Assembly: GCF_057098645.1 (NCBI RefSeq)
Contig: NZ_CM169472.1
Direction: 5' to 3' (one strand)
DNA: 64,000 bases
Both the position numbers and the translations under genes were made by a program. Shown here in pieces: positions 1,986-30,739 of the stretch (positions are counted from its first letter, which is position 1; each line of letters opens with the position of its first letter). The notes under the pieces are model-generated. The model made no database searches and had not been told where the DNA came from. It saw only the letters and a program-made list of their open reading frames with translations.

Positions 1986-2115
1986 CAGGCACAAAAAAAC
2001 CACCCGAAGGTGGTTTCACGACACTGCTTATTGCTTTGATTTTATTCTTATCTTTCCCATGGTACCCGGAGCGGGACTTGAACCCGCACAGCGCGAACGC
2101 CGAGGGATTTTAAAT
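1986..2115. repeat. Left direct repeat (attL) of island: 130-bp copy of leuZ 3' end (56 nt) plus downstream terminator region
   Basis: 130 bp with one mismatch to 30579..30708; contains a tRNA-Leu 3' fragment (2060..2115, minus) and a hairpin/T-run copy (about 1993..2017). Confidence 0.85.
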
Positions 2116-11549: not shown

Positions 11550-12189
11550 TCGGCAACCGCCTCATCGACCTTAACACGACGTTTGCCAGTCAGTAGCTGT
11601 TGCATCAGGGCTTTTTTCTCGTCTTTCAGGCAGGCGAGTTTTTTCTCCAGCGTGGAGATTTCAGCGTCGGCAGCGGAAAGGACGGCGGCGATTTTTTGTT
11701 GTTCTTTGATATCTAATGGCAACCTAAAGTCTTTCTCTTTAAGTTCTCGCATATGTCTGCTGTAACCTAAATTCGGAATATCTGTATTTGAAAGAAGATA
11801 GTATCCAAGTTTTGGTTCAAGTATTTTGCTAGTTTTTATTACTTGCGTTCCATCAGCACCGGGACAAAACACAAACTCAATCCATTTGACGCATCTTGTA
11901 TGATCGCCAAAAACAATCACAGGCACGTCCGAATAAACCTCTAAATTATTACAGTACCCAGCAATTCGACTTTGCCCTTGATCGATTATAGGGATGGAAC
12001 CTGACTGTAAATAATCGGAAGATTTGACTTGCGCCGATTTTTTATTTGCAACAATGAAAGCATTATCAAACGTTAAATATACCCACTCCCCATTAAACCT
12101 CCCCCCATTCTCATCCAGCAAGCGTTTTTGTCCGGTAAGCAATTGCTGCATCAGGGCTTTTTTCTGTTGCTGGCTGTTGGTGAGAAGCG

Positions 12190-13245
12190 GCTTTGTTGAA
12201 TAAATCAGATTTCGGGTAAGTCTCCCCCGTAGCGGGTTGTGTTTTCAGGCAATACGCACGCTTTCAGGCATACCTGCTTTCGTCATTTTGTTCAGCGCTC
12301 GTACCAGGGCCATAGCCTCCGCAACCTGACCATCGTAGTCACGCAGCGTCAGTGAACCCCCGAACAGCTGTTTTACCCGGTACATCGCCGTTTCCGCTAT
12401 CGAGCGACGGTTGTAATCTGTTGTCCATTTCCACCGCGCATTACTCCCGGTCATTCGCTGATTAGCCACTGCACGGTTACGGTCTGCATATTCACCGGGC
12501 CAGTAGCCCGCACCTTTTCGGGGAGGGATAAGCGCGCTGATTTTCTTACGCCGCAGTTCATCGTGACATAGCCGGGTATCGTAAGCGCCATCGGCGGCGG
12601 CTGACCTGATTTTCCGGTGGGTTTGCCGGATTAACCCGGGGAAGGCCTCTGAGTCCGTAACGTTGTTCAGCGACAGGTCTGCACAGATGATTTCATGTGT
12701 TTTACTGTCAACGGCGAGATGCAGCTTACGCCAGATACGGCGGCGTTCCTGGCCATGCTTTTTGACTTTCCACTCGCCTTCACCGAAGACCTTCAGCCCG
12801 GTGGAATCAATCACCAGATGTGCGATTTCACCCCGGGTGGGCGTTTTGAAACTGACATTAACCGACTTTGCCCGCCTGCTGACACAGCTGTAATCCGGGC
12901 AGCGTAGCGGAACGTTCATCAGAGAAAAAATGGAATCAATAAAGCCCTGCGCAGCGCGCAGGGTCAGCCTGAATACGCGTTTAATGACCAGCACAGTCGT
13001 GATGGCAAGGTCAGAATAGCGCTGAGGTCTGCCTCGTGAAGAAGGTGTTGCTGACTCATACCAGGCCTGAATAGCTTCATCATCCAGCCAGAAAGTTATG
13101 GAGCCACGGTTGATGAGGGCTTTATTGTAGGTGGGCCAGTTGGTGATTTTGAACTTTTGCTTTGCCACGGAACGGTCTGCGTTGTCGGGAAGATGCGTGA
13201 TCTGATCCTTCAACTCAGCAAAAGTTCGATTTATTCAACAAAGCC
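12190..13245 (-). mobile_element. IS5-family (IS903-group) insertion sequence, copy 1
   Basis: ~1057 bp; terminal inverted repeats GGCTTTGTTGAATAAATC at both ends; flanked by 9-bp target-site duplication GTGAGAAGC (12181..12189 and 13246..13254). Confidence 0.85.
12245..13213 (-). CDS. IS903-group (IS5 family) transposase
   Basis: 322-aa ORF; DDE transposase with ...LIDSTGLKVFGEGEWKVKKHG...WRKLHLAVD... region; identical protein encoded at 28742..29710. Confidence 0.88.
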   Translation of the reverse strand: MKDQITHLPDNADRSVAKQKFKITNWPTYNKALINRGSITFWLDDEAIQAWYESATPSSRGRPQRYSDLAITTVLVIKRVFRLTLRAAQGFIDSIFSLMNVPLRCPDYSCVSRRAKSVNVSFKTPTRGEIAHLVIDSTGLKVFGEGEWKVKKHGQERRRIWRKLHLAVDSKTHEIICADLSLNNVTDSEAFPGLIRQTHRKIRSAAADGAYDTRLCHDELRRKKISALIPPRKGAGYWPGEYADRNRAVANQRMTGSNARWKWTTDYNRRSIAETAMYRVKQLFGGSLTLRDYDGQVAEAMALVRALNKMTKAGMPESVRIA

Positions 13246-18126: not shown

Positions 18127-18269
18127 TTTCTTAATATAATGGCGACATGGAATTGTGTTGCCATTATATCCGAATCAGAATTTTTCACCTGATGAACTGT
18201 GAAAACTGAGACTGGCAGACAGTAATCTCGCACCGTATTTTTTCTGTGTTATTTTACAGGAGAAATACG

Positions 18270-19400
18270 ATGCCCATTCTGGATCTGCGTTTCAGCAACA
18301 AATCACTTCACCAACTTCCCCATCCCCTCACGGGCTGTCAGGAATACCGTGATATTCACTGCCAAAACCTGCGTGCTCTGGTGTATCCCAATCGGATCAC
18401 GCTGGCCTTTCGTGCCACTATAAACAATCAGCGTATATATGAACCCCTGGGTCAGTTCCCTCAGCTCTGCGTTGAGGATGCCCGTCAGCATGTGATGAAA
18501 CTGCTTGCTGATAAAAATCGTCTTGCGGTTCAGTCCCGTCGATTCACTGTGGAACAGGCCATCAATGACCTGTGGCTACCGGATTTGCAGTTGTATAAAA
18601 AGAGTCCTCAGTCAGAGTTGTCAAAACTCAACCTCTACGTTCGCCCGTTCTGGGGCAAGCGGCAACTTCGCGACATCACGGCAGGAGAACTAGAACAATA
18701 TGCTGCTGGCTTACGGGAAAAATTACGTCCGTCAACAGTAAACCGTATCCTCGCAATATTGTCCAAAATATGCTCTCTGGCAGTACGTGCTGGATGGATC
18801 ACGCATTCCCCGATGTCACATGTCCGCTATCTGAAAGAAAATAACATTCGCTATCGCACACTATCAGCGACAGAAATCCCGCGCTTTATTGACGCGGCAA
18901 CAGCGCTGCAAACACCGGCAGCTGATTCTATATTGCTTGCTCTTTATACGGGGATGCGTATTGGTGAGGTATGTACCCTGAAATGGGAGTACTGGCACCT
19001 GGATATGCATCAACTCATACTGCCTGATACAAAGTCCGGACACCCTTTCACCTGCCCACTTGCACCTCCAGCCATTGCAGTTGTCCAGTGCCAGCAGGAC
19101 CTGATGCTCAGCAAAACTTACATTTTTCCGCGACTAACCGACAATGCCCGCCCTCTGGCATATCCGCGTGCAACCTTTGCCCGTATTTGCCGGGATGCCG
19201 ACATTGATAACCTGCGGATGCATGACCTGCGCCGTACCTTTGCCACCCGGGTACTACAGGCGACCGGGGATATTGCAATCGCTTCCCATCTGCTAAATCA
19301 CCATTCACTCACGGCGACCCGTCGCTACGCTTTTCACAATGCAGCGACATCACACGCAGTGGTTTCTCAGGTCATTGAAAGTTATGACACGAAAAAATGA
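18270..19400 (+). CDS. Tyrosine recombinase / phage-type integrase
   Basis: 376 aa from the ATG at 18270, which is preceded by AGGAG; C-terminal catalytic region ...HDLRRTFATRVLQ...HLLNHHSLTATRRYAF (R..H..R..Y). Confidence 0.85.
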   Translation: MPILDLRFSNKSLHQLPHPLTGCQEYRDIHCQNLRALVYPNRITLAFRATINNQRIYEPLGQFPQLCVEDARQHVMKLLADKNRLAVQSRRFTVEQAINDLWLPDLQLYKKSPQSELSKLNLYVRPFWGKRQLRDITAGELEQYAAGLREKLRPSTVNRILAILSKICSLAVRAGWITHSPMSHVRYLKENNIRYRTLSATEIPRFIDAATALQTPAADSILLALYTGMRIGEVCTLKWEYWHLDMHQLILPDTKSGHPFTCPLAPPAIAVVQCQQDLMLSKTYIFPRLTDNARPLAYPRATFARICRDADIDNLRMHDLRRTFATRVLQATGDIAIASHLLNHHSLTATRRYAFHNAATSHAVVSQVIESYDTKK

Positions 19401-19440
19401 ACCAATGATCTGTGATTCGTGAAAGCAGTTCGCAGAAAGA

Positions 19441-19608
19441 TTGAATCTTTCTGCATCCACGGTTGCGTCAGATATTTCTCGCAATCCCGGAAAACTCCCG
19501 CCCTTCATCAGAATTGGGCGGGCTATACGATTCTCTCTTGACGATATTGTTGATTGGGAAAATGCACATCGTCAAAACAAACTTAAAGGTGATATAAATG
19601 GTTACTAA
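19441..19608 (+). CDS. Possible AlpA/Xis-like HTH excisionase-type small protein (start codon uncertain)
   Basis: Frame translation ...LSASTVASDISRNPGKLPPFIRIGRAIRFSLDDIVDWENA... resembles AlpA-family regulators; no ATG start, so a TTG/GTG start or a 5' truncation is implied; not in the ORF track (<60 aa). Confidence 0.3.
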   Translation: MNLSASTVASDISRNPGKLPPFIRIGRAIRFSLDDIVDWENAHRQNKLKGDINGY

Positions 19609-19786
19609 GAACACGGAAAATAACGCTAATAATGCACTGAACATTCTTCCCGAATCAGCAAGCACAGCTGTAGACAACGATGAAAAATATCTGTCCTTTG
19701 CATTAGTTCTCGCTATCACGATTATGGGCAACTGAACCGCCCCGGGAATCCTGGAGACTAAACTTCCTGAGAAAGAGGTAAACAGG

Positions 19787-20113
19787 ATGACTAAAAATAC
19801 TCGTTTTTCCCCTGAAGTCCGTCAACGGGCAGTCCGTATGGTTCTGGAAAGTCAGGGCGAATATGACTCACAATGGGCGACAATTTGTTCCATTGCTCCA
19901 AAGATTGGCTGTACGCCGGAGACTCTGCGTGTCTGGGTTCGCCAGCATGAGCGGGATACCGGGGGCGGTGATGGAGGGCTCACCACCGCTGAACGTCAGC
20001 GTCTGAAAGAGCTGGAGCGTGAAAATCGTGAACTGCGCCGCAGTAACGATATCCTTCGCCAGGCTTCCGCTTATTTTGCGAAGGCGGAGTTCGACCGCCT
20101 CTGGAAAAAATGA
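19787..20113 (+). CDS. IS3-family transposase OrfA (HTH)
   Basis: 108-aa [22 protein letters not shown]..., typical IS3-family OrfA with leucine-zipper-like C-terminus. Confidence 0.85.
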
Positions 20114-21000
20114 TGCCACTGCTGGATAAGCTGCGTGAGCAGTACGGGGTCGGACCGCTATGCAGCGAACTGCATATTGCCCCGTCAACGTATTACCACT
20201 GTCAGCAACAGCGACATCATCCGGATAAACGCAGTGCCCGTGCGCAGCGCGATGACTGGCTGAAGAAAGAGATACAGCGCGTATACGATGAAAATCACAA
20301 GGTATACGGTGTGCGTAAAGTCTGGCGTCAGTTGTTACGGGAAGGTATCAGAGTGGCCAGATGCACTGTGGCACGTCTCATGGCGGTTATGGGACTTGCC
20401 GGTGTTCTCCGGGGTAAAAAGGTCCGTACGACCATCAGCCGGAAAGCCGTTGCCGCAGGCGACCGCGTAAACCGTCAGTTCGTGGCAGAACGACCTGACC
20501 AGCTGTGGGTGGCTGATTTTACTTACGTCAGCACATGGCAGGGCTTCGTCTATGTGGCGTTCATCATTGATGTGTTTGCCGGATACATTGTGGGGTGGCG
20601 GGTCTCATCGTCCATGGAGACGACATTCGTGCTGGATGCACTGGAGCAGGCGTTATGGGCCCGTCGACCGTCCGGCACGGTCCATCACAGTGATAAAGGT
20701 TCTCAGTATGTATCGCTGGCCTACACACAGCGGCTTAAGGAAGCCGGATTACTGGCATCAACAGGAAGTACAGGCGACTCGTATGACAACGCGATGGCGG
20801 AGAGCATCAATGGTCTTTACAAAGCGGAGGTAATACACCGTAAGAGCTGGAAAAACCGTGCAGAAGTGGAACTGGCCACACTCACGTGGGTGGACTGGTA
20901 TAACAATCGACGATTGCTGGAAAGGCTGGGCCATACTCCTCCGGCAGAAGCAGAAAAAGCTTATTATGCTTCCATCGGAAACGATGATCTGGCAGCCTGA
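20110..21000 (+). CDS. IS3-family transposase OrfB (DDE integrase-like catalytic domain)
   Basis: 296-aa ORF with DDE motif region (...WVADFTYV...HHSDKGSQY...[10 protein letters not shown]...). Confidence 0.85.
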
Positions 21001-21662
21001 GTTCACAGATAAAACACTCTCCAGGAAACCCGGGGCGGTTCAAACTTAGTAAAGCTCATCGGCACAGATGGCTTCATACTTTATACCTACACCCTGCAGG
21101 ACACGGCTACTGCTCGTGCTGTTTTTAATGAATTAGCCAGGCGTCTCAAAAATTTCAATCGTCAGGAGGAGGTCTACACCACCGATTCCCTCACCTTTCG
21201 AATGAAATACATTTACGGTGTTACCCTGTTCGAACATGATAGTAAATCTATCCTTAACCTTTTTGATAAGAAGGGTTATCCAGTATTGAGTGAATCAGGA
21301 GAACCCGGTTCTCTTGATGATATGTATCTTGACATTCAAGCCCGATTACATGGCGGCTACGCCTCAAAAAAGTTTCTTCATTTACATGAACATTGTCTGT
21401 TATCTGCACACGTTACCCCGTCTGTGGAAAAGACGCAACGTGGTATCCTGATTAAAGCAGGCAGGAAACTCGTTTCCTTTATCTATGCAGATAATGAATC
21501 TCGCAAAAATGATATTTTCAAAGCTGTAGTAGACGTCATTAAATCCTGATTCATTATGCCGGGTGCGTATTCCGCTCTATTCGATCACGGATTGGCATCG
21601 AAGTCCGATCAGCGATTCGCATCCATTCGATCAACCGGGAACTTAACTTTTTCTACCGCTTT

Positions 21663-22418
21663 TTAACGCGTTTTTTCGCTGCTTTCCACTACCGGGGGAT
21701 TTTTCCTCAGTGACTCTCCCTGAAGGACCACTCGGTGTGAGTTATGTACCAGTCTGTCCAGGATGGCATCTGCTGTTGTTGGGTTCTCCATCAGACCATG
21801 CCATTTATCTACCGGGAACTGGCTTACCACTATCGTGCTGCTTTGTCCGTAACGATCCTCTATGAGCTCCAGAAGGTCATTACACTGGGCGTTACTTAAC
21901 TGTTCCAGCCCCAGATCGTCCAGGATTAGAACCTGTATTTTTTGCAACTGTTTCAGATATTTCAGCCAGCTGCCATCAACACGTCCCTGAGCCAGTTGTT
22001 CCAGTAATCGCCCGGTTCTACAGTACCGGACGCTGTGTTTCTGTCGACATGCCTGTTCGCCCAGCGCATTGGCTATCCAGCTCTTGCCACATCCTGTCGG
22101 ACCGGTTATCAGCAGGTTTTTCCTGTGGGTTATGTAGTGGCCGTTCAGCAGTTCTCTCATCTGTTCAGCCCGCAGACCTCTTGAGGCCGGATAGCGCAGC
22201 CCTTCCGGTGTTGCCTGGTATTTCAGGCCGGCATTTTTTCTCAACCGTGCCACACGGCTGTTTTCCCTGCTCAGAAGCTCGTCATCAACCAGCAGCGTCA
22301 GCCTTTCCTCGAACGACAGTTCGTCGTAGGTCTGAGGCGTTTCCCGCTGCCGTATCAGGCTCCCGGCCATCGCCGGGAGTTTCAGTTGGGTCAGTTTGTT
22401 TAACAGGTTATCACTCAT
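21663..22418 (-). CDS. istB: IS21-family helper ATPase IstB
   Basis: Walker A GPTGCGKS and Walker B-like ILDDLG motifs; start set at MSDNLLNKL within the longer ORF 21663..22661. Confidence 0.8.
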   Translation of the reverse strand: MSDNLLNKLTQLKLPAMAGSLIRQRETPQTYDELSFEERLTLLVDDELLSRENSRVARLRKNAGLKYQATPEGLRYPASRGLRAEQMRELLNGHYITHRKNLLITGPTGCGKSWIANALGEQACRQKHSVRYCRTGRLLEQLAQGRVDGSWLKYLKQLQKIQVLILDDLGLEQLSNAQCNDLLELIEDRYGQSSTIVVSQFPVDKWHGLMENPTTADAILDRLVHNSHRVVLQGESLRKNPPVVESSEKTR

Positions 22419-22434
22419 ACTGTTGTTCCTTCTG

Positions 22435-23970
22435 TCAGTGGTAGTAGCCCGGACCACGCAGGTTTTCATGCTCTGAAGCATATGCCGGATGTTGTTCGCC
22501 CTGGCGGGATAATGGAAGCTCCAGGTTCTCCCGATGGTGACGCAGCAGATTGTCGATAAAGCGTCTGTCAGGGGCGTTATAGTGCAGGGCAACGTAACAG
22601 GCCTTTTCCAGCCGTTCCGGGCCGTATTTTTTCTGAAGTGCCAGCAGCCCCAGAACTGCACGATAAGCCAGTTCCGGATGGGGTTTTGCCTTCAGCATGG
22701 ATTCAACCACCCGGCCTGTGGACGGGCCCGTACGTTTTCCCTGCTCGATCAGGCGTTCCGGTGTCCATGTCCCGTGCTGCCGGTGGCGCTCTGGCATGTG
22801 AAGCGGATTGGTTGTGTGTTTATATTCATGTGTGCTGCGCGGATGTTGCGCCACACACTGCCCCTTGTGCCAGAGCTGTACCACCGACTGCCCCGCCTTC
22901 AGTGACAGACGCTGACCGACCAGTTCGTGTGGAACGGAGTACCAGTGACGGGCATATTCAACGTGGTAGTCAGGGCCAACCTTCACAGCTTTGTATTCCG
23001 TGTATTCATAAGGTGCCAGAGGCAGCGGAGAGAGTGCTGGCGCATCCAGTATGCGGAAGCGTTCTGCACGGGTTTGATTGCCGTACCCCTTCATTGGCCG
23101 GTTATTCATGTCTGTCAGTAACTCCCTAAGGCGCGCATTCAGCGCCCTGAGCGTGTGGAAGGTTTCATTACGGATGCGGGCAAGAAGCCATCGTTCAACG
23201 ATGAGGACGCCGTTTTCTGCTTTTGGTTTATCTTTAGGTTTGCGTGGTCGGGCCGGGATGATAACCGTGCCATAGTGCTCAGCCAGTGCCTGATAACTGT
23301 CGTTGATGACAGGCTCATATCGATCGGCCTTTTTCACTGCGCTTCTGAGGTTATCGGGGATGAGCAGCTTCGGTACGCCGCCCAGGAAGGTCAGGCAACG
23401 GCTGTGGGCATTTAACCATGACATCATGTCCTGACCTTCGCACGCTTCAACGTAGGTATAGTTGGACGCCCCCATTACGGCCACGAAGATTGCCACGCGG
23501 CGTATCTCACCGGTGTCCGGATTAATAACAGGAACCGTAGGACCACAGAAGTCGATAAAAAGCTTTTCGCCGGCACGATGCTCCTGGCGCATGGAGAGAC
23601 GTCGCGTTTTTTTCCACTCCCGGTAGCAACGGCAGAAGTGCGAGTATCCCATCGCTTTGTTACCCGCCTGTGCCTTGTATTCCATCCACAACAGTTGCCG
23701 CGTCACACCTGGTTTTCTCATTTCCGTATCGAAGTACAACATGTCAGGCATTACAAGCTCTGATGCAAAGGTGTCTTTGGGCGGAAAAATGAGTTTCTCC
23801 AGCGTGTCATGGGATATATCAGCAGGTAATGGCCATGACAGAGAAGAGGCTTTGAAGCGGGCAAGAACCTCAAAAACGGTTGAGGCGCTGATGTGTAACG
23901 TCAGTCCGATACAACGGTTAGTCAGCTTCTTGTCGAACTTGAGCTGAAGGATCTTAAAACAGGTTTCCAT
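22435..23970 (-). CDS. istA: IS21-family transposase IstA
   Basis: Large ORF 22435..24081 with N-terminal HTH and DDE catalytic region; start uncertain (internal Met chosen); overlaps istB start, as typical for IS21. Confidence 0.75.
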   Translation of the reverse strand: METCFKILQLKFDKKLTNRCIGLTLHISASTVFEVLARFKASSLSWPLPADISHDTLEKLIFPPKDTFASELVMPDMLYFDTEMRKPGVTRQLLWMEYKAQAGNKAMGYSHFCRCYREWKKTRRLSMRQEHRAGEKLFIDFCGPTVPVINPDTGEIRRVAIFVAVMGASNYTYVEACEGQDMMSWLNAHSRCLTFLGGVPKLLIPDNLRSAVKKADRYEPVINDSYQALAEHYGTVIIPARPRKPKDKPKAENGVLIVERWLLARIRNETFHTLRALNARLRELLTDMNNRPMKGYGNQTRAERFRILDAPALSPLPLAPYEYTEYKAVKVGPDYHVEYARHWYSVPHELVGQRLSLKAGQSVVQLWHKGQCVAQHPRSTHEYKHTTNPLHMPERHRQHGTWTPERLIEQGKRTGPSTGRVVESMLKAKPHPELAYRAVLGLLALQKKYGPERLEKACYVALHYNAPDRRFIDNLLRHHRENLELPLSRQGEQHPAYASEHENLRGPGYYH

Positions 23971-24594
23971 AGTGCTCCTGGATTTTCTCTTTCTGGACAT
24001 TGACGTCTCCACTGGTTTAAACACGGCAATGGAGACTGTGGTGAAAAGAGTTAATTCCCGGAGTGACTGGCAGGATGCCAATCAATGATCGGAAGCATGC
24101 CAAATCGTGATCGATTGTGATGCCAAACTGTGATCGGAGATGGATGCCAAATCATGATCGATTCGAATGCCAAACTGCGATCGATTCAGATGCCATTTTG
24201 CAGCCGGGGGGGACGAACTCCCGGCATTTTTTCGGAGTTAACTATGAGCAATAATTTGCAGGACATCCTCGCTGCCGCATCGGGGTATCAGTCCGTGACT
24301 TCAGAGCCAGCGCTCAATCTTAAAAGACCTAAAACGCTTGATGATTATCCTGTGATACCACCTGCATCAAAAAAAGTATCTGTTATTTCAAGTGACCTGA
24401 CACTCCATATCGGTTTTGATACCGAATATGTTTTCAATCCTGAAACACAACAGAATGATATTCTGTCATATCAGAGTTATGTTGTCTTACCCGATAATAC
24501 AGGTATATCGAACATTATCTATCCACCTGACTCACAGAAAAAATCCCGGCTGTCTTTTAAGAACTTTCTCTGTCAAACGATTATGGATTTGCCC

Positions 24595-25500
24595 CTATAT
24601 TTCCAGACATCTGTTATCACTTAACCCATTACAAGCCCGCTGCCGCAGATATTCCCGTGGCGAGCGATAACCCAGCGCACTATGCGGATGCCATTCGTTA
24701 TAATGCTCGAACGCCTCTGCAAGGTTCTTTGCTGCCGTTAACCCGTCTGGTTTGGGCATGATACTGATGTAGTCACGCTTTATCGTTTTCACGAAGCTCT
24801 CTGCTATTCCGTTACTCTCCGGACTCCGCACCGCCGTGTTCTTCGGTTCAAGTCCCAACATCCGGGCGAACTGGCGTGTTTCATTAGCCCGGTAGCATGA
24901 ACCATTATCCGTCAGCCACTCCACTGGAGACGACGGAAGATCGTTGCCGAAGCGGCGTTCCACCGCTCCCAGCATGACGTCCTGTACTGTTTCACTGTTG
25001 AAGCCGCCGGTAGTCACCGCCCAGTGCAGTGCCTCACGATCACAGCAGTCCAGCGCGAACGTGACACGCAGTCTCTCTCCGTTATCACAGCAGAACTCGA
25101 ACCCGTCAGAGCACCATCGCTGATTGCTTTCTTTCACGGCCACTCTGCCTGTATGTGCCCGTTTCGATGGCGGTACAGCAGGTTTTCGCTCAAGCAACAG
25201 CGCATTCTGGCGCATGATCCGGTAAACACGTTTGGCATTGATCGCAGGCATACCATCAAGTTCTGCCTGTCTGCGAAGCAGCGCCCATACCCGACGATAA
25301 CCATACGTGGGCAGCTCTCCGATAACATGGTGTATACGGAGAAGCACATCCGTATCATCAGTGTGACGACTGCGGCGGCCATCCATCCAGTCATCGGTTC
25401 GTCTGAGAATGACGTGCAACTGCGCACGCGACACCCGGAGACAACGGCTGACTAAGCTTACTCCCCATCCCCGGGCAATAAGGGCGCGTGCGCTATCCAC
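24595..25500 (-). CDS. insD: IS2 transposase OrfB (InsD)
   Basis: 301-aa [24 protein letters not shown]... with DDE integrase core; overlaps insC as expected for a frameshift-fusion transposase. Confidence 0.85.
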
Positions 25501-25823
25501 TTTTTTGCCCGTCCATATTCAACGGCTTCTTTGAGGAGTTCATTTTCCATCGTTTTCTTGCCGAGCAGGCGCTGGAGTTCTTTAATCTGCTTCATGGCGG
25601 CAGCAAGTTCAGAGGCAGGAACAACCTGTTCTCCGGCGGCCACAGCAGTAAGACTTCCTTCCTGGTATTGCTTACGCCAGAGAAATAACTGGCTGGCTGC
25701 TACACCATGTTGCCGGGCAACGAGGGAGACCGTCATCCCCGGTTCAAAGCTCTGCTGAACAATTGCGATCTTTTCCTGTGTGGTACGCCGTCTGCGTTTC
25801 TCCGGCCCTAAGACATCAATCAT
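25458..25823 (-). CDS. insC: IS2 transposase OrfA (InsC)
   Basis: Starts [26 protein letters not shown]..., the InsC sequence as recalled; taken from the internal Met of ORF 25458..25868. Confidence 0.85.
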
Positions 25824-27974
25824 CTGTTCTCCAATGACTAGTCTAAAAACTAGTATTAAGACTATCACTTATTTAAGTGATACTGGTTGTCTGGAGATTC
25901 AGGGGGCCAGTCTAGATTACACCGCTTCTTGAAACGGGTGTGATTACAAAATGGCCCGGTATTATTAATATATATGCGCATTTCATTCGTGCGGATATCA
26001 CCTCCTTTGCCAATTTCTGGTCAGACTACAAAATTCTTCTGAAAGGAATACGCGGTACTGTCAGCAGCTTCAAAAATCGTTACGGTATCGATTTTGATGA
26101 ACAGCAGGAACGTCGCGTAAAGACTGAACAGATAATGTTTGACAAACGAACTTCCCCTCCGCGTTGCAGTAACGTAGCTTTCATCGATACACTGCTTATC
26201 ACTCCCGGGGGTATGGGTCTGGCTGAATGTGGTGAATTACTGGGTCTTCCCAAACTGACCATTCCTGCACCTTATTCCATAACCAATATGCGTGAATATC
26301 TTCTGGGCGACAGAGCAGGGTTTGAAGCCTATGCTCTGCGGGATGCCGAGATTGCGGTTCGTTATGCTTTACAGGTTCGCAATTTTTGCGCCCGGGAGCT
26401 GATGATTGATCGTGTCCCCGCCACCATCGGGGCGATGGCAGTTTCACGGTTCACCAAAACACTTAAAGAAAACAATATGTCTCCTGAAGTCTGCCTTGGG
26501 ACACACATTAAAACCCGTGAACTCTGGCTCACGGAGAAACAGGCATTCCGGACGATTAAAAACCCCGCCAGTGTTCCTTCAAGAGAGCTGTTTGAAACGT
26601 TCCCGATCAACTGTTACCACGGCGGACGCAATGAGTGTTTTATGATGGGGGTTACACCGTCTGATCACTGGTATGACTACGATCTGGCTGGAGCGTATAC
26701 CACCGGGCTATTAGATATCCTCATACCCGATTACGGAAACATCCGCCTCAGTAAAAATCCGGACGATTACTGTGGGCATGTAATGGGATTTGCGTTTGTC
26801 ACATTTCAGTTCCCGGAATCAGTTCCCTATCCCAGCCTGCCGGTTCGGACCGATCAATATGGGTTATTCTTTCCATTAAGTGGCGAATCATGGGCAACGG
26901 CACCTGAAATCGAACTTGCTCTGTCGCTCGGGGCAGAGATGACGATCCATAATGGGATCATCGTCCCCTGGATCTGTGACACCTCCCCACATAACAGCGA
27001 ATCAACATCGGTGTTTCTTCCCTTTGTTCAACAGGTCCGTGAGAACCGTAATCGCCATATTAAAGGTTCTCTGGAGGAGAAATTCTGGAAAGAAATTGGC
27101 AACTCGCTTTATGGCAAACTTGCTCAGGGCCTTCGCGCCAAAACCGCCTTTGATACTGCCCGTGGATTAAACAGATCCCTCCCACCATCATCGGTTACTC
27201 AGCCATTCTTTGCTGCGCATGTGACGGGATTTATCCGCGCCGTTGTCGGGGAACTCATGAATGCTTTGCCTTCTGATTCATCGGTTGTCAGCGTCACAAC
27301 CGATGGCTTTTTGACAAATTGCCCACTTAACAAGATAAACATGAGCGGTCCACTGTCTTCCCGCTTCCAGTCGCTGTGCGATATTGTTGATCCGGGTTCA
27401 TCAATGTTGACATGTAAGCATGAGGTCAGCCAGCTTATCGCCATGAAAACCCGGGGGCAGTTAACCTATAGAGCTATTCAGGGAAAACCTGTTGTTCATG
27501 CCAGGGCTGGCGTCAAACCTCCTGCCGATATTCCACGCAGTGACTATAACGACTATATGGTAGATCTTTACCTTAATCGTTTACCCGGTCAGACGTTATC
27601 CCGAAGTACGTTGATATCAACGCGTGAGATGTGGCTGTCGGAAAGCGATCTGGTATCCCGGGAACAGGATATCCGTCTTAATCTGGAATTCGATTTCAAA
27701 CGCCAGCCCGTACAGCCCGCCATGAATGAAGGGCATTTACTGATGTCTTCCCGCCCATGGGATAATATGGAAGAGGCTCTGCAGCAACGCTCTCTTTTCG
27801 ACGACTGGCGGCAAACGCATACACTGAAGACCCTGGCTGACTGGGATGACTGGTGTGATTTTCTCTATTGCCGGACGGTGTTTTCTGATATGAAACTAAA
27901 AGTCGGAAGCAAACGTAGTGATGATATTTTAGTCAGACTATTTCTCCGGGCGCTGACTCAGTGCCAATGGGGGC

Positions 27975-28523
27975 TTATGCTGAAAGATAAAAAAAGTTAT
28001 TCCTGTAAAGAGGTTGCTGAATGGCTGACGTCAGAAGGCTATTCAGTAACATGTCAAAAAGCACCTGCTGGATCTCCCGGGCCCGAAGGTCGCAGTAACG
28101 TATCTTCCCCAGACGAGGTTCAATGTATTGCGTGAAACGCTGAACATCCTTATCCCAGGACTTTTTATGGCGTTTGATGAACGGAACATAGGTCTGGTGA
28201 AAAAACTCACTAAGTGTTGGCATCGCACGATAATTATCGCGTTCTGCTTTAGGGTCATTTCCCAGTGCAATCGCCTCCTTGTGACGACGAGCTATCTGAC
28301 GGGCTGTCCCCACATCGATTTCAGGGAATCTGCCAATACTGATACTTTTTTTGGTACCGTGGAATGTGTAGCGCAGGAGGAAACGTTTGTTACCCGTTCG
28401 ACCTGAGAGACATTTGAGGCCTATGACCTCGGTATCTGATACCTCAAGCTCTGTAGATCGGGTATCTGTGTTTGCCGGAAGGGCTTTGATGGATGAATTG
28501 GTGAATCGGAAGGATTTTTGCAT
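27975..28523 (-). pseudogene. Truncated P4-type integrase (N-terminal arm-binding domain only)
   Basis: ORF 27975..28553; MQKSFRFTNSSIKALP...GTARQIARRHKEAIALGNDP resembles the DUF4102 arm-binding N-terminus of P4-family integrases; no catalytic domain; 3' part overlaps the piPolB 3' end on the opposite strand. Confidence 0.5.
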
Positions 28524-28709
28524 ATTTATCCTCATGTATCTGATTGATATCATGAAAATAATATATATCTGAAGGTGTTTTTATTACGGGGCAGGATTGA
28601 AGAATGGAAAAGCTATTAGACGCGTACAAACGGATATTGCAGGAAGTTAACGCCCAGTCATTTAACCTGAATGAGGATAAATACTCAGGCGTCTTTTTAC
28701 CCGTGCCGT

Positions 28710-29766
28710 GGCTTTGTTGAATAAATCGAACTTTTGCTGAGTTGAAGGATCAGATCACGCATCTTCCCGACAACGCAGACCGTTCCGTGGCAAAGCAAAA
28801 GTTCAAAATCACCAACTGGCCCACCTACAATAAAGCCCTCATCAACCGTGGCTCCATAACTTTCTGGCTGGATGATGAAGCTATTCAGGCCTGGTATGAG
28901 TCAGCAACACCTTCTTCACGAGGCAGACCTCAGCGCTATTCTGACCTTGCCATCACGACTGTGCTGGTCATTAAACGCGTATTCAGGCTGACCCTGCGCG
29001 CTGCGCAGGGCTTTATTGATTCCATTTTTTCTCTGATGAACGTTCCGCTACGCTGCCCGGATTACAGCTGTGTCAGCAGGCGGGCAAAGTCGGTTAATGT
29101 CAGTTTCAAAACGCCCACCCGGGGTGAAATCGCACATCTGGTGATTGATTCCACCGGGCTGAAGGTCTTCGGTGAAGGCGAGTGGAAAGTCAAAAAGCAT
29201 GGCCAGGAACGCCGCCGTATCTGGCGTAAGCTGCATCTCGCCGTTGACAGTAAAACACATGAAATCATCTGTGCAGACCTGTCGCTGAACAACGTTACGG
29301 ACTCAGAGGCCTTCCCCGGGTTAATCCGGCAAACCCACCGGAAAATCAGGTCAGCCGCCGCCGATGGCGCTTACGATACCCGGCTATGTCACGATGAACT
29401 GCGGCGTAAGAAAATCAGCGCGCTTATCCCTCCCCGAAAAGGTGCGGGCTACTGGCCCGGTGAATATGCAGACCGTAACCGTGCAGTGGCTAATCAGCGA
29501 ATGACCGGGAGTAATGCGCGGTGGAAATGGACAACAGATTACAACCGTCGCTCGATAGCGGAAACGGCGATGTACCGGGTAAAACAGCTGTTCGGGGGTT
29601 CACTGACGCTGCGTGACTACGATGGTCAGGTTGCGGAGGCTATGGCCCTGGTACGAGCGCTGAACAAAATGACGAAAGCAGGTATGCCTGAAAGCGTGCG
29701 TATTGCCTGAAAACACAACCCGCTACGGGGGAGACTTACCCGAAATCTGATTTATTCAACAAAGCC
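28710..29766 (+). mobile_element. IS5-family (IS903-group) insertion sequence, copy 2
   Basis: Same ends as copy 1 (GGCTTTGTTGAATAAATC inverted repeats), inverted relative to copy 1; flanked by 9-bp target duplication CCGTGCCGT (28701..28709 and 29767..29775). Confidence 0.85.
28742..29710 (+). CDS. IS903-group (IS5 family) transposase
   Basis: 322-aa ORF identical in sequence to the one at 12245..13213. Confidence 0.88.
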   Translation: MKDQITHLPDNADRSVAKQKFKITNWPTYNKALINRGSITFWLDDEAIQAWYESATPSSRGRPQRYSDLAITTVLVIKRVFRLTLRAAQGFIDSIFSLMNVPLRCPDYSCVSRRAKSVNVSFKTPTRGEIAHLVIDSTGLKVFGEGEWKVKKHGQERRRIWRKLHLAVDSKTHEIICADLSLNNVTDSEAFPGLIRQTHRKIRSAAADGAYDTRLCHDELRRKKISALIPPRKGAGYWPGEYADRNRAVANQRMTGSNARWKWTTDYNRRSIAETAMYRVKQLFGGSLTLRDYDGQVAEAMALVRALNKMTKAGMPESVRIA

Positions 29767-30578
29767 CCGTGCCGTTTGAAGAATACTGGCATTCACCGAT
29801 AAAAATCATGCTGGTTGGACGTGAAACCGCAGGCTGGAATACGCTGAATGGTAAGAATACGATATCACGGGTGTTGGGACTTATACCTGACGTCACCATC
29901 GGGCAAGTGGTTGAAGAAGCTGTAGATCGTTACAGGAAACATCTTCCGGTACAAAATTATGGCACCGCCAACCTCAAATCACGTAGCCGCTTCACGCAAT
30001 ATCATTTCAGGCTGGCCCGGGAGCTTAATATTCTTCCCCAGGCAATCGTGTATGCCAATCTACTGGCGTGGGATTACGACGGACTGACCCCTCTCAATCG
30101 CCCTCAAAATGAAGTGCAGGAAGTCATATTAGCCTCGCTGAAGCTACTGGCGGTACAAATTAAACACCTTGAGCCTGATTTCATCATCTTTGCATCTGGA
30201 GCCCGGAGAACAGACTACATCATAAAACAGGTGCTTACTGAGCTAGGCGGCTATGAGACTTCTTCAGTCATTCCGGGGAAGCTGTGGGAGTTCAAAACAG
30301 GTAATACAATCTGTTTCAGAATTGCCCATCCAAGGGCTATGCGCGGACACCAGAAGTACAGAGATGAGGTGATTGCACGAATTAAGCAACTTTGTACTCA
30401 GGGTGGCTAGAGCATTACAGCTTGCTCAGCAGGGCCCCTTCCCGGAAGAGTACCGGAAAACAGGCAAAGCAACCTGGTTCTCTATGCTGGAGGCGACACG
30501 TTCGATTCGGCATTGCCAGGCTGGAGATTGCAGCTCATTGCACCCCGTGAGCACAGGATATGCACAGGACATGAATTT

Positions 30579-30708
30579 CAGGCACAAAAAAACCACCCGG
30601 AGGTGGTTTCACGACACTGCTTATTGCTTTGATTTTATTCTTATCTTTCCCATGGTACCCGGAGCGGGACTTGAACCCGCACAGCGCGAACGCCGAGGGA
30701 TTTTAAAT
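30579..30708. repeat. Right direct repeat (attR): leuZ 3' end plus downstream terminator region
   Basis: 130 bp matching 1986..2115 with one mismatch; overlaps the intact tRNA-Leu 3' 56 nt. Confidence 0.85.
30586..30612 (-). terminator. Rho-independent terminator of the glyW-cysT-leuZ tRNA operon
   Basis: Minus-strand hairpin aaccacc-tccg-ggtggtt followed by a T7 run immediately 3' of leuZ. Confidence 0.7.
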
Positions 30709-30739
30709 CCCTTGTGTCTACCGATTCCACCATCCGGGC
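30653..30739 (-). tRNA. leuZ: tRNA-Leu (anticodon UAA)
   Basis: 87-nt sequence GCCCGGATGGTGGAATCGGTAG...CTCCGGGTACCA on the minus strand; anticodon loop TTTAAAA; long variable arm; encoded CCA. Confidence 0.9.

Follow-up and report, generated by a model that had tools for sequence, protein, structure and literature searches.

The tail-to-tail overlap of a piPolB gene with a truncated integrase gene in the 64,000-nt stretch of DNA analysed here (hereafter the window; contig NZ_CM169472.1 of RefSeq assembly GCF_057098645.1) is almost certainly the scar of one illegitimate-recombination deletion within the Escherichia coli pipolin at tRNA-Leu (leuZ), a scar that was later inherited, moved and subjected to further decay. 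Intact pipolins have piPolB on the plus strand and the att-proximal integrase of the IntSXT/P4 subgroup on the minus strand, in convergent orientation with 5 kb between them. Loss of ~5.8 kb, with 1 nt of microhomology, brought codon 824 of piPolB tail to tail against codon 158 of the integrase, such that each gene now runs into the antisense of the other until it meets a chance stop codon; in piPolB, 27 foreign residues thereby substitute for 42 native residues, and in the integrase stub 23 substitute for 241. This was a single event, after which the deleted haplotype was inherited and moved into several E. coli backgrounds, with further decay in the window through insertion sequence (IS) insertions in piPolB and the neighbouring genes.

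The pipolin and its boundaries

The window covers the E. coli chromosome around the glyW-cysT-leuZ tRNA operon, pgsA, uvrC and uvrY. Its chromosomal flanks are 99.95-100% identical to those of the O145:H28 strain RM9872, which represents the CC32 lineage of the pipolin papers (PMC7385651; PMC11551731). Within these flanks lies an island of 28.7 kb with a 130-nt direct repeat at each end (129/130 identical), these outer copies being the only two in the window, and with a cargo of a GmrSD-type nuclease, a type I restriction-modification system, an IntP2-type recombinase, piPolB and several IS elements. Because it is repeat-bounded at tRNA-Leu and has both piPolB and the IntP2-type recombinase among its cargo, the island is an E. 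coli pipolin as defined in earlier studies (PMC5695915; PMC7385651; PMC11551731). At the DNA level, its piPolB gene is 99.4% identical to those that 295 genomes annotate as DNA polymerase or piPolB, and one of its att-like flanking direct repeats lies over tRNA-Leu. The landmarks of the element are:

1986..2115: attL, the left copy of the 130-nt direct repeat, 129/130 identical to 30579..30708
18246..19400, plus strand: the IntP2-type second pipolin recombinase, 376 aa from the native ATG, with Pfam matches PF00589 and PF22022
30579..30708: attR, the right copy of the repeat, overlapping the 3' 56 nt of tRNA-Leu(taa)
30653..30739: tRNA-Leu(taa)

IntP2 is full length in the window and differs from its orthologue in the intact pipolin of strain AR_0085 by four substitutions. 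Between the integrase and tRNA-Leu lies a conserved gene for a 246-aa protein (window 28604..28709 plus 29766..30410; intact in the AR_0085 locus, L003, at 25668..26408), which has no match in Pfam or PADLOC and is the single gene of this interval in strains that lack the IS903B copy found here. This gene is inside the att-bounded element in every pipolin examined. An Rfam search of the window returned three tRNAs and one IS3 frameshift pseudoknot only, with no match at the integrase/piPolB overlap.

A base-exact deletion joint

We compared positions 27700..28750 by megablast with 5426 complete E. coli genomes and obtained two classes of matches: 32 genomes match the full query, and many others match only from query position 351 (window 28050). 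The partial matches fall in an annotated 400-aa 'site-specific integrase' adjoining the same tRNA-Leu; these genes, full length in other E. coli, are 97.6-98.5% identical at the DNA level to window 28050..28709 in their 5' part and upstream region. Two genomes in which both piPolB and the integrase are whole, AR_0085 (NZ_CP029741, 81.6-96.7 kb; L003) and OZ261667 (L004), then served as intact references in a three-way alignment with the window. These intact leuZ pipolins share the order of the window up to piPolB codon 824 and again from integrase codon 158 to tRNA-Leu, with the piPolB part 99.4% identical, but they keep 5.8 kb, including the catalytic half of the integrase, that the window lacks. 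Window 25915..28050 corresponds to L003 17158..19293, in piPolB, and window 28050..28709 to L003 25114..25773, in the integrase 5' part and its upstream region. The resulting parts of the two genes are:

24244..24583, plus strand: first 113 codons of piPolB (BLAST against RM9872 and AR_0085)
25915..28050, plus strand: continuation of the native piPolB coding sequence 3' of an IS2-type element, as far as Thr824 (99.4% identity with intact genes)
28049/28050: deletion joint, with the C at 28050 common to both parental sequences (1 nt of microhomology; alignment against AR_0085 and OZ261667)
28051..28135, plus strand: non-native piPolB tail, consisting of the third base of the Thr824 codon and then 27 foreign codons and a stop from the integrase antisense
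27975..28049, minus strand: read-through tail of the integrase stub, 24 codons and a stop from the piPolB antisense (alignment with the intact integrase and piPolB)
28050..28523, minus strand: retained integrase 5' part, a pseudogene of 474 nt (codons 1-158) with the arm-binding domain and roughly the first half of the core-binding domain
28524..28553, minus strand: in-frame extension of the longest open reading frame (ORF) by ten codons 5' of the native ATG, not part of the native gene

The piPolB ORF ends at 28135, and the two ORFs overlap tail to tail over 27975..28135, i.e. 161 nt or ~53 codons, in agreement with the ~50 piPolB codons given by the initial annotation of this sequence; the arrangement is far beyond chance. 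The same annotation had suspected a deletion joint near 28070..28135: such a joint exists, although at 28049/28050 it falls ~20 nt outside that bracket. Intact pipolins with the same overlap and a short native protein at this place, named there as the finding that would speak against a deletion, were not seen. Rather than a native stand-alone arm-binding protein overlapping piPolB, the intact loci have the 400-aa integrase 5 kb from piPolB, and the native piPolB 3' end is present in 257 of the 295 complete genomes that have the 3' region of this gene.

The interval of AR_0085 that is absent from the window is 19294..25113 (5820 bp); the two endpoints of the joint are 5.8 kb apart in AR_0085 and 7.1 kb apart in OZ261667, which has an extra IS3. 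The lost DNA takes in the final 42 piPolB codons, six complete genes and integrase codons 159-400, including PF00589. From annotation and Pfam, three of the six genes code for an HTH_DeoR-WYL-WCX regulator and for proteins with DUF726 and DUF2787, respectively, and the other three for orphans, one of them of 108 aa; on the deleted genes, PADLOC gave no more than generic WYL matches. DUF2787, WYL and the IntSXT integrase are among the conserved core genes of gammaproteobacterial pipolins (PMC11551731).

Because the endpoints share just 1 nt, do not convincingly resemble att and lack an IS end, we attribute the deletion to illegitimate recombination. Comparisons of endpoint with endpoint, and of the left endpoint with att, gave homology no better than shuffled sequences; the right endpoint reached a score of 13 against att, attained by 0.028 of the shuffles, which, as one marginal result in three tests, we take as chance. 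No IS end is present at the joint. Site-specific, homologous and IS-mediated recombination were considered as deletion mechanisms and are argued against by these same features. The mechanism would rather have been non-homologous or alternative end joining, or replication slippage or template switching with minimal microhomology.

Two chimeric reading frames

Native piPolB has 866 aa and ends in ...SEGYSVT-VTDVKNAVRAKIPQMKFSSVTPRMKSLMDIIARKYPTFCLPV. In the joined version, 27 residues from the integrase antisense, CQKAPAGSPGPEGRSNVSSPDEVQCIA, take the place of the native last 42 (VTDVKNAV...TFCLPV), so the suspicion in the initial annotation that the extreme C-terminus is non-native proved justified. 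In strains without the IS insertion in this gene (RM9872, PapRG-06-5), the chimera is an uninterrupted protein of 851 aa and may still be active there, whereas in the window both the IS insertion and the chimeric tail mark piPolB as a pseudogene by its sequence. Pfam recovers a weak match to PF03175 (DNA_pol_B_2) in the piPolB of the window and, at E<=10, nothing credible in the last 119 residues of the protein; no solved structure matched piPolB by sequence. A single-sequence AlphaFold2 model of native residues 641-866 has a pLDDT of only 39.7, too low to be of use, and the predicted secondary structure gives no more than a hint that the break lies between two short helices. PS10-3 (L007) has an in-frame 9-nt insertion in piPolB, TGACTGGGA, after the position equivalent to window 27837 and within an imperfect local repeat, which gives an 854-aa chimera. 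The same 9-nt excess, together with 98.9% identity, is seen in XPFI_3_2, YJR, GPEC1292 and CM196106, which suggests that they have the insertion in common with PS10-3.

On the opposite strand, the ORF 27975..28553 codes for 192 aa. The ORF itself is as initially annotated, but its start is not the native one: the integrase begins with the ATG at 28523 (MQKSF...), the start also used by the intact orthologue and by RefSeq, where PGAP marks window 28047..28523 as a pseudogene, 'Arm DNA-binding domain-containing protein', 'incomplete; missing C-terminus'. In the 192-aa ORF, Pfam detects Arm-DNA-bind_3 alone (PF13356, formerly DUF4102; residues 17-106, E 7.7e-15, 55 bits, cut-off 27); the catalytic domain PF00589 was not found. 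In the intact 400-aa orthologue of AR_0085, Arm-DNA-bind_3 spans residues 7-96, the central domain ~119-199 and the Phage_integrase catalytic domain PF00589 213-377; the solved structures 3ju0 (arm-binding domain) and 2kj5 (core-binding domain) align to its residues 21-96 and 127-198, respectively. The window keeps residues 1-158, which confirms the earlier reading of the ORF as an arm-binding N-terminal domain without its catalytic domain. The native sequence stops within the core-binding (SAM-like/central) domain, of which a sub-threshold SAM-like match remains, and the DNA encoding the catalytic R, HxxR and Tyr nucleophile is deleted. Beyond the joint, the first codon of the tail encodes Leu, matching the native Leu159 by coincidence, and is followed by 23 foreign residues, NSLLTSAIQQPLYRNNFFYLSA, that stand in for 241 native ones. 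As the whole catalytic domain (R..HxxR..Y) is lost, the stub, judged by its domain content, cannot recombine DNA and is predicted to be a pseudogene. We infer that both chimeric products, that of piPolB as well as that of the integrase, lack function.

The truncated gene belongs to the pipolin

Among tyrosine recombinases, the DUF4102 arm-binding domain is what defines the IntSXT subgroup, to which the tRNA-targeting P4 cluster belongs (PMC8138268, Smyshlyaev et al. 2021). The integrase considered here shares the common features of that cluster, namely the N-terminal DUF4102 (PF13356) and the location of the gene beside the tRNA used for integration as the att site. The stub departs from the recombinases of the subgroup and cluster in that it has no catalytic domain, and its product is not a recombinase. 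The label 'P4-type' is acceptable at the subgroup level, although the pipolin integrase shows <30% identity to any integrase in a phage collection and reaches only 22.6 bits with the NCBIfam P4-like model PRK09692, for which the cut-off is 434. In the initial annotation, this label had been attached to an 'orphan' fragment; the P4 subgroup stands, but any sense of a foreign island does not, the gene being on present evidence the pipolin's own tRNA-proximal IntSXT/P4-subgroup recombinase (PMC8138268; PMC11551731). An att-proximal IntSXT integrase is ubiquitous in gammaproteobacterial pipolins (PMC11551731). Moreover, in the intact loci of AR_0085 and OZ261667 the 130-nt att repeat lies only at tRNA-Leu and never separates piPolB from the integrase, and therefore both genes are in one element.

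Integrases running across the breakpoint position occur in 441 complete genomes, many of them only 80-95% identical, compared with 295 genomes that have piPolB. Related integrases also occur without piPolB, for example in MSB1_9I, which has the integrase module and, of piPolB, only a 3' remnant.

One event in several chromosomal backgrounds

The identical joint is found in 32 of the 5426 complete E. coli genomes, mostly O145:H28, and the integrase is uninterrupted across the breakpoint in 407. The 24-nt joint sequence is absent from 100,044 GTDB species-representative genomes. The joint, CTATTCAGTAAC directly followed by ATGTCAAAAAGC, provides a base-exact marker for tracking the deleted haplotype. 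In RM9872, UTME-3, CUVM53, PapRG-06-5 and PS10-3, the joint and its surroundings are base-identical save for a few SNPs and the 9-nt insertion of the PS10-3 group. From the stub down to attR, these five strains are 99.7-100% identical to the window, whereas the intact versions are 96.4-98.5% identical; the best intact match on the integrase side reaches 98.5%, and no intact pipolin with the exact parental haplotype was found on that side. The chromosomal flanks of CUVM53, PapRG-06-5 and PS10-3, on the other hand, differ from those of the window by 0.7-1.4%. Because the joint is identical, the distinguishing SNPs are common to its carriers and the flank backgrounds differ, the alignments establish one deletion event followed by spread, and point to a common origin of the truncated pipolins of these five strains across at least three flank backgrounds.

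In SNP-density profiles of both flanks, the low-divergence tract reaches ~1 kb past attR. This extension hints that the deleted haplotype may have been transferred by homologous recombination of the chromosomal flanks; however, the stretch in question is highly conserved, and the left flank carries no information on this point. That the pipolin might still be mobile, through IntP2 (intact in PapRG-06-5 and the window) or an integrase acting in trans, seems to us improbable; the stub might in that case bind arm sites in an accessory or regulatory role.

Alternative readings of the joint have to be set against these data. One holds that the stub is the leftover of a separate P4-like island in tandem with the pipolin at tRNA-Leu, and the joint a fusion of two elements. 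The excess of genomes with the integrase across the breakpoint (407-441 complete genomes) over those with the piPolB 3' end (295) would fit such a history, as would the integrase module of MSB1_9I with its piPolB remnant. However, the att repeat has no internal copy, being confined to tRNA-Leu in the two intact loci and to the outer ends in the window; furthermore, the IntSXT integrase, DUF2787 and WYL genes are syntenic with piPolB across Gammaproteobacteria and treated as pipolin core (PMC11551731). We thus regard a two-element origin as very unlikely. Still less credible is that the joint marks a recurrent hotspot or an IS-mediated deletion that arose independently in different lineages. 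The many IS copies in the element and the IS-compatible gaps that the text of PMC11551731 reports for the truncated pipolin subgroup could be cited in its favour, but the joint is base-identical in every strain examined and lacks an IS end, and its carriers have flanking SNPs in common that set them apart from all intact versions, a pattern that independent events would fail to produce. An assembly artefact of the source contig, for which nothing speaks except the abrupt change of homology, has a negligible probability, given that the same joint recurs in 32 independently assembled complete genomes from different laboratories.

The single deletion within the pipolin might nevertheless have yielded a selected product, namely a short arm-binding protein that serves, for instance, as a decoy on arm sites and blocks excision or the integration of related elements. 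All five sampled lineages keep the ORF of the stub open, with its native start and the DNA upstream of it preserved, such that expression may be possible, and the haplotype persists in several backgrounds. Yet the only two substitutions among the lineages are both non-synonymous (P102S, R22L), with no sign of purifying selection, the core-binding domain is halved, the tail consists of 23 antisense-derived residues, and a scan of 27600..28760 found no promoter-like consensus; neither a sigma-70-like promoter nor a terminator was detected near the joint, which in itself is uninformative. The persistence of the haplotype is explained by its youth. As its divergence is at most 0.3%, it is too young for the open ORF to be taken as a sign of selection, and we consider a selected function of the stub to be very unlikely, on a par with the two-element origin.

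Relationship to described truncated pipolins

A truncated, monophyletic pipolin subgroup is already described (PMC7385651; PMC11551731), and the stub is already a RefSeq pseudogene. The truncated pipolins of clonal complex 32/H28 (LREC247, LREC250 and LREC251) are of the same element type and at the same tRNA-Leu site as that in the window (PMC7385651, Flament-Simon et al. 2020). The window likewise matches the text description that accompanies Fig. 3B of the 'pipolin 2' subgroup, in which DNA between IntSXT and piPolB is deleted, down to the truncated recombinase (PMC11551731, Mateo-Caceres et al. 2024). The truncated pipolins of these papers are, like that of the window, monophyletic, with a recombinase cut to the Arm DNA-binding domain, a truncated piPolB and IS copies near IntP2. 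The breakpoint and the chimeric tails, which are not given in the main text of either paper, are mapped and listed here; new in the present analysis are thus the joint at base resolution, the inventory of lost genes, the origin of both chimeric tails and the counts in complete genomes.

As a deletion scar in a mobile element undergoing decay, the feature is ordinary in kind, and no new system is involved. It matters chiefly to annotators: O145:H28 entries for an 851-aa 'DNA-directed DNA polymerase' (e.g., WP_022582033.1) end in 27 residues of antisense integrase sequence. Users of these entries as piPolB references, or those scoring pipolin mobility, should be aware of the foreign tail and of the 'Arm DNA-binding domain-containing protein' stub. 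The scar also documents the decay of the pipolin in the STEC O145:H28 lineage, in which the att-proximal integrase, the WYL/DUF2787 core genes and, in the window, piPolB have been lost.

Further lesions in the window

The window differs from the collection of complete genomes in extra IS2-type and IS903B insertions that are found in none of them. The IS elements of the island that bear on the genes discussed here are:

12189..13245 and 28710..29765: two IS903B copies in opposite orientation
19734..21042: IS3-family element of 1.3 kb with an ALIL frameshift pseudoknot (Rfam RF01497, 20068..20184)
21564..24202: IS21-family element with IstA-like (22435..24081) and IstB (21663..22661) genes, ~40 nt 5' of the piPolB start codon (24244)
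24584..25914: IS3-family (IS2-type) element of 1331 bp with transposase ORFs matching rve and HTH_21, which interrupts piPolB after codon 113 and has duplicated 5 bp of the target

We take the element at 24584..25914 to be IS2-type from its InsD-like 301-aa transposase, and its length also fits; this insertion is absent from RM9872 and the other sampled strains. The IS903B copy at 28710..29765 splits the 246-aa orphan gene (native start ~28604) with a ~9-bp duplication, its junction at 28709/28710 occurring in 0 of the 5426 complete E. coli genomes, and the copy at 12189..13245 lies inside the specificity gene of the type I restriction-modification system. The IS21-family element is likewise absent from RM9872. 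The IS3-family element at 19734..21042 sits in a 212-aa gene that has an excisionase-like HTH gene on one side and piPolB on the other; two copies of this element are present in RM9872, and a deletion between them truncated IntP2 in that strain. Finally, relative to PapRG-06-5 and AR_0085, the window has a 143-nt deletion at 19422/19423, common to RM9872, that removes the DNA between the IntP2 and excisionase-like HTH genes together with the first 15 nt of the latter.
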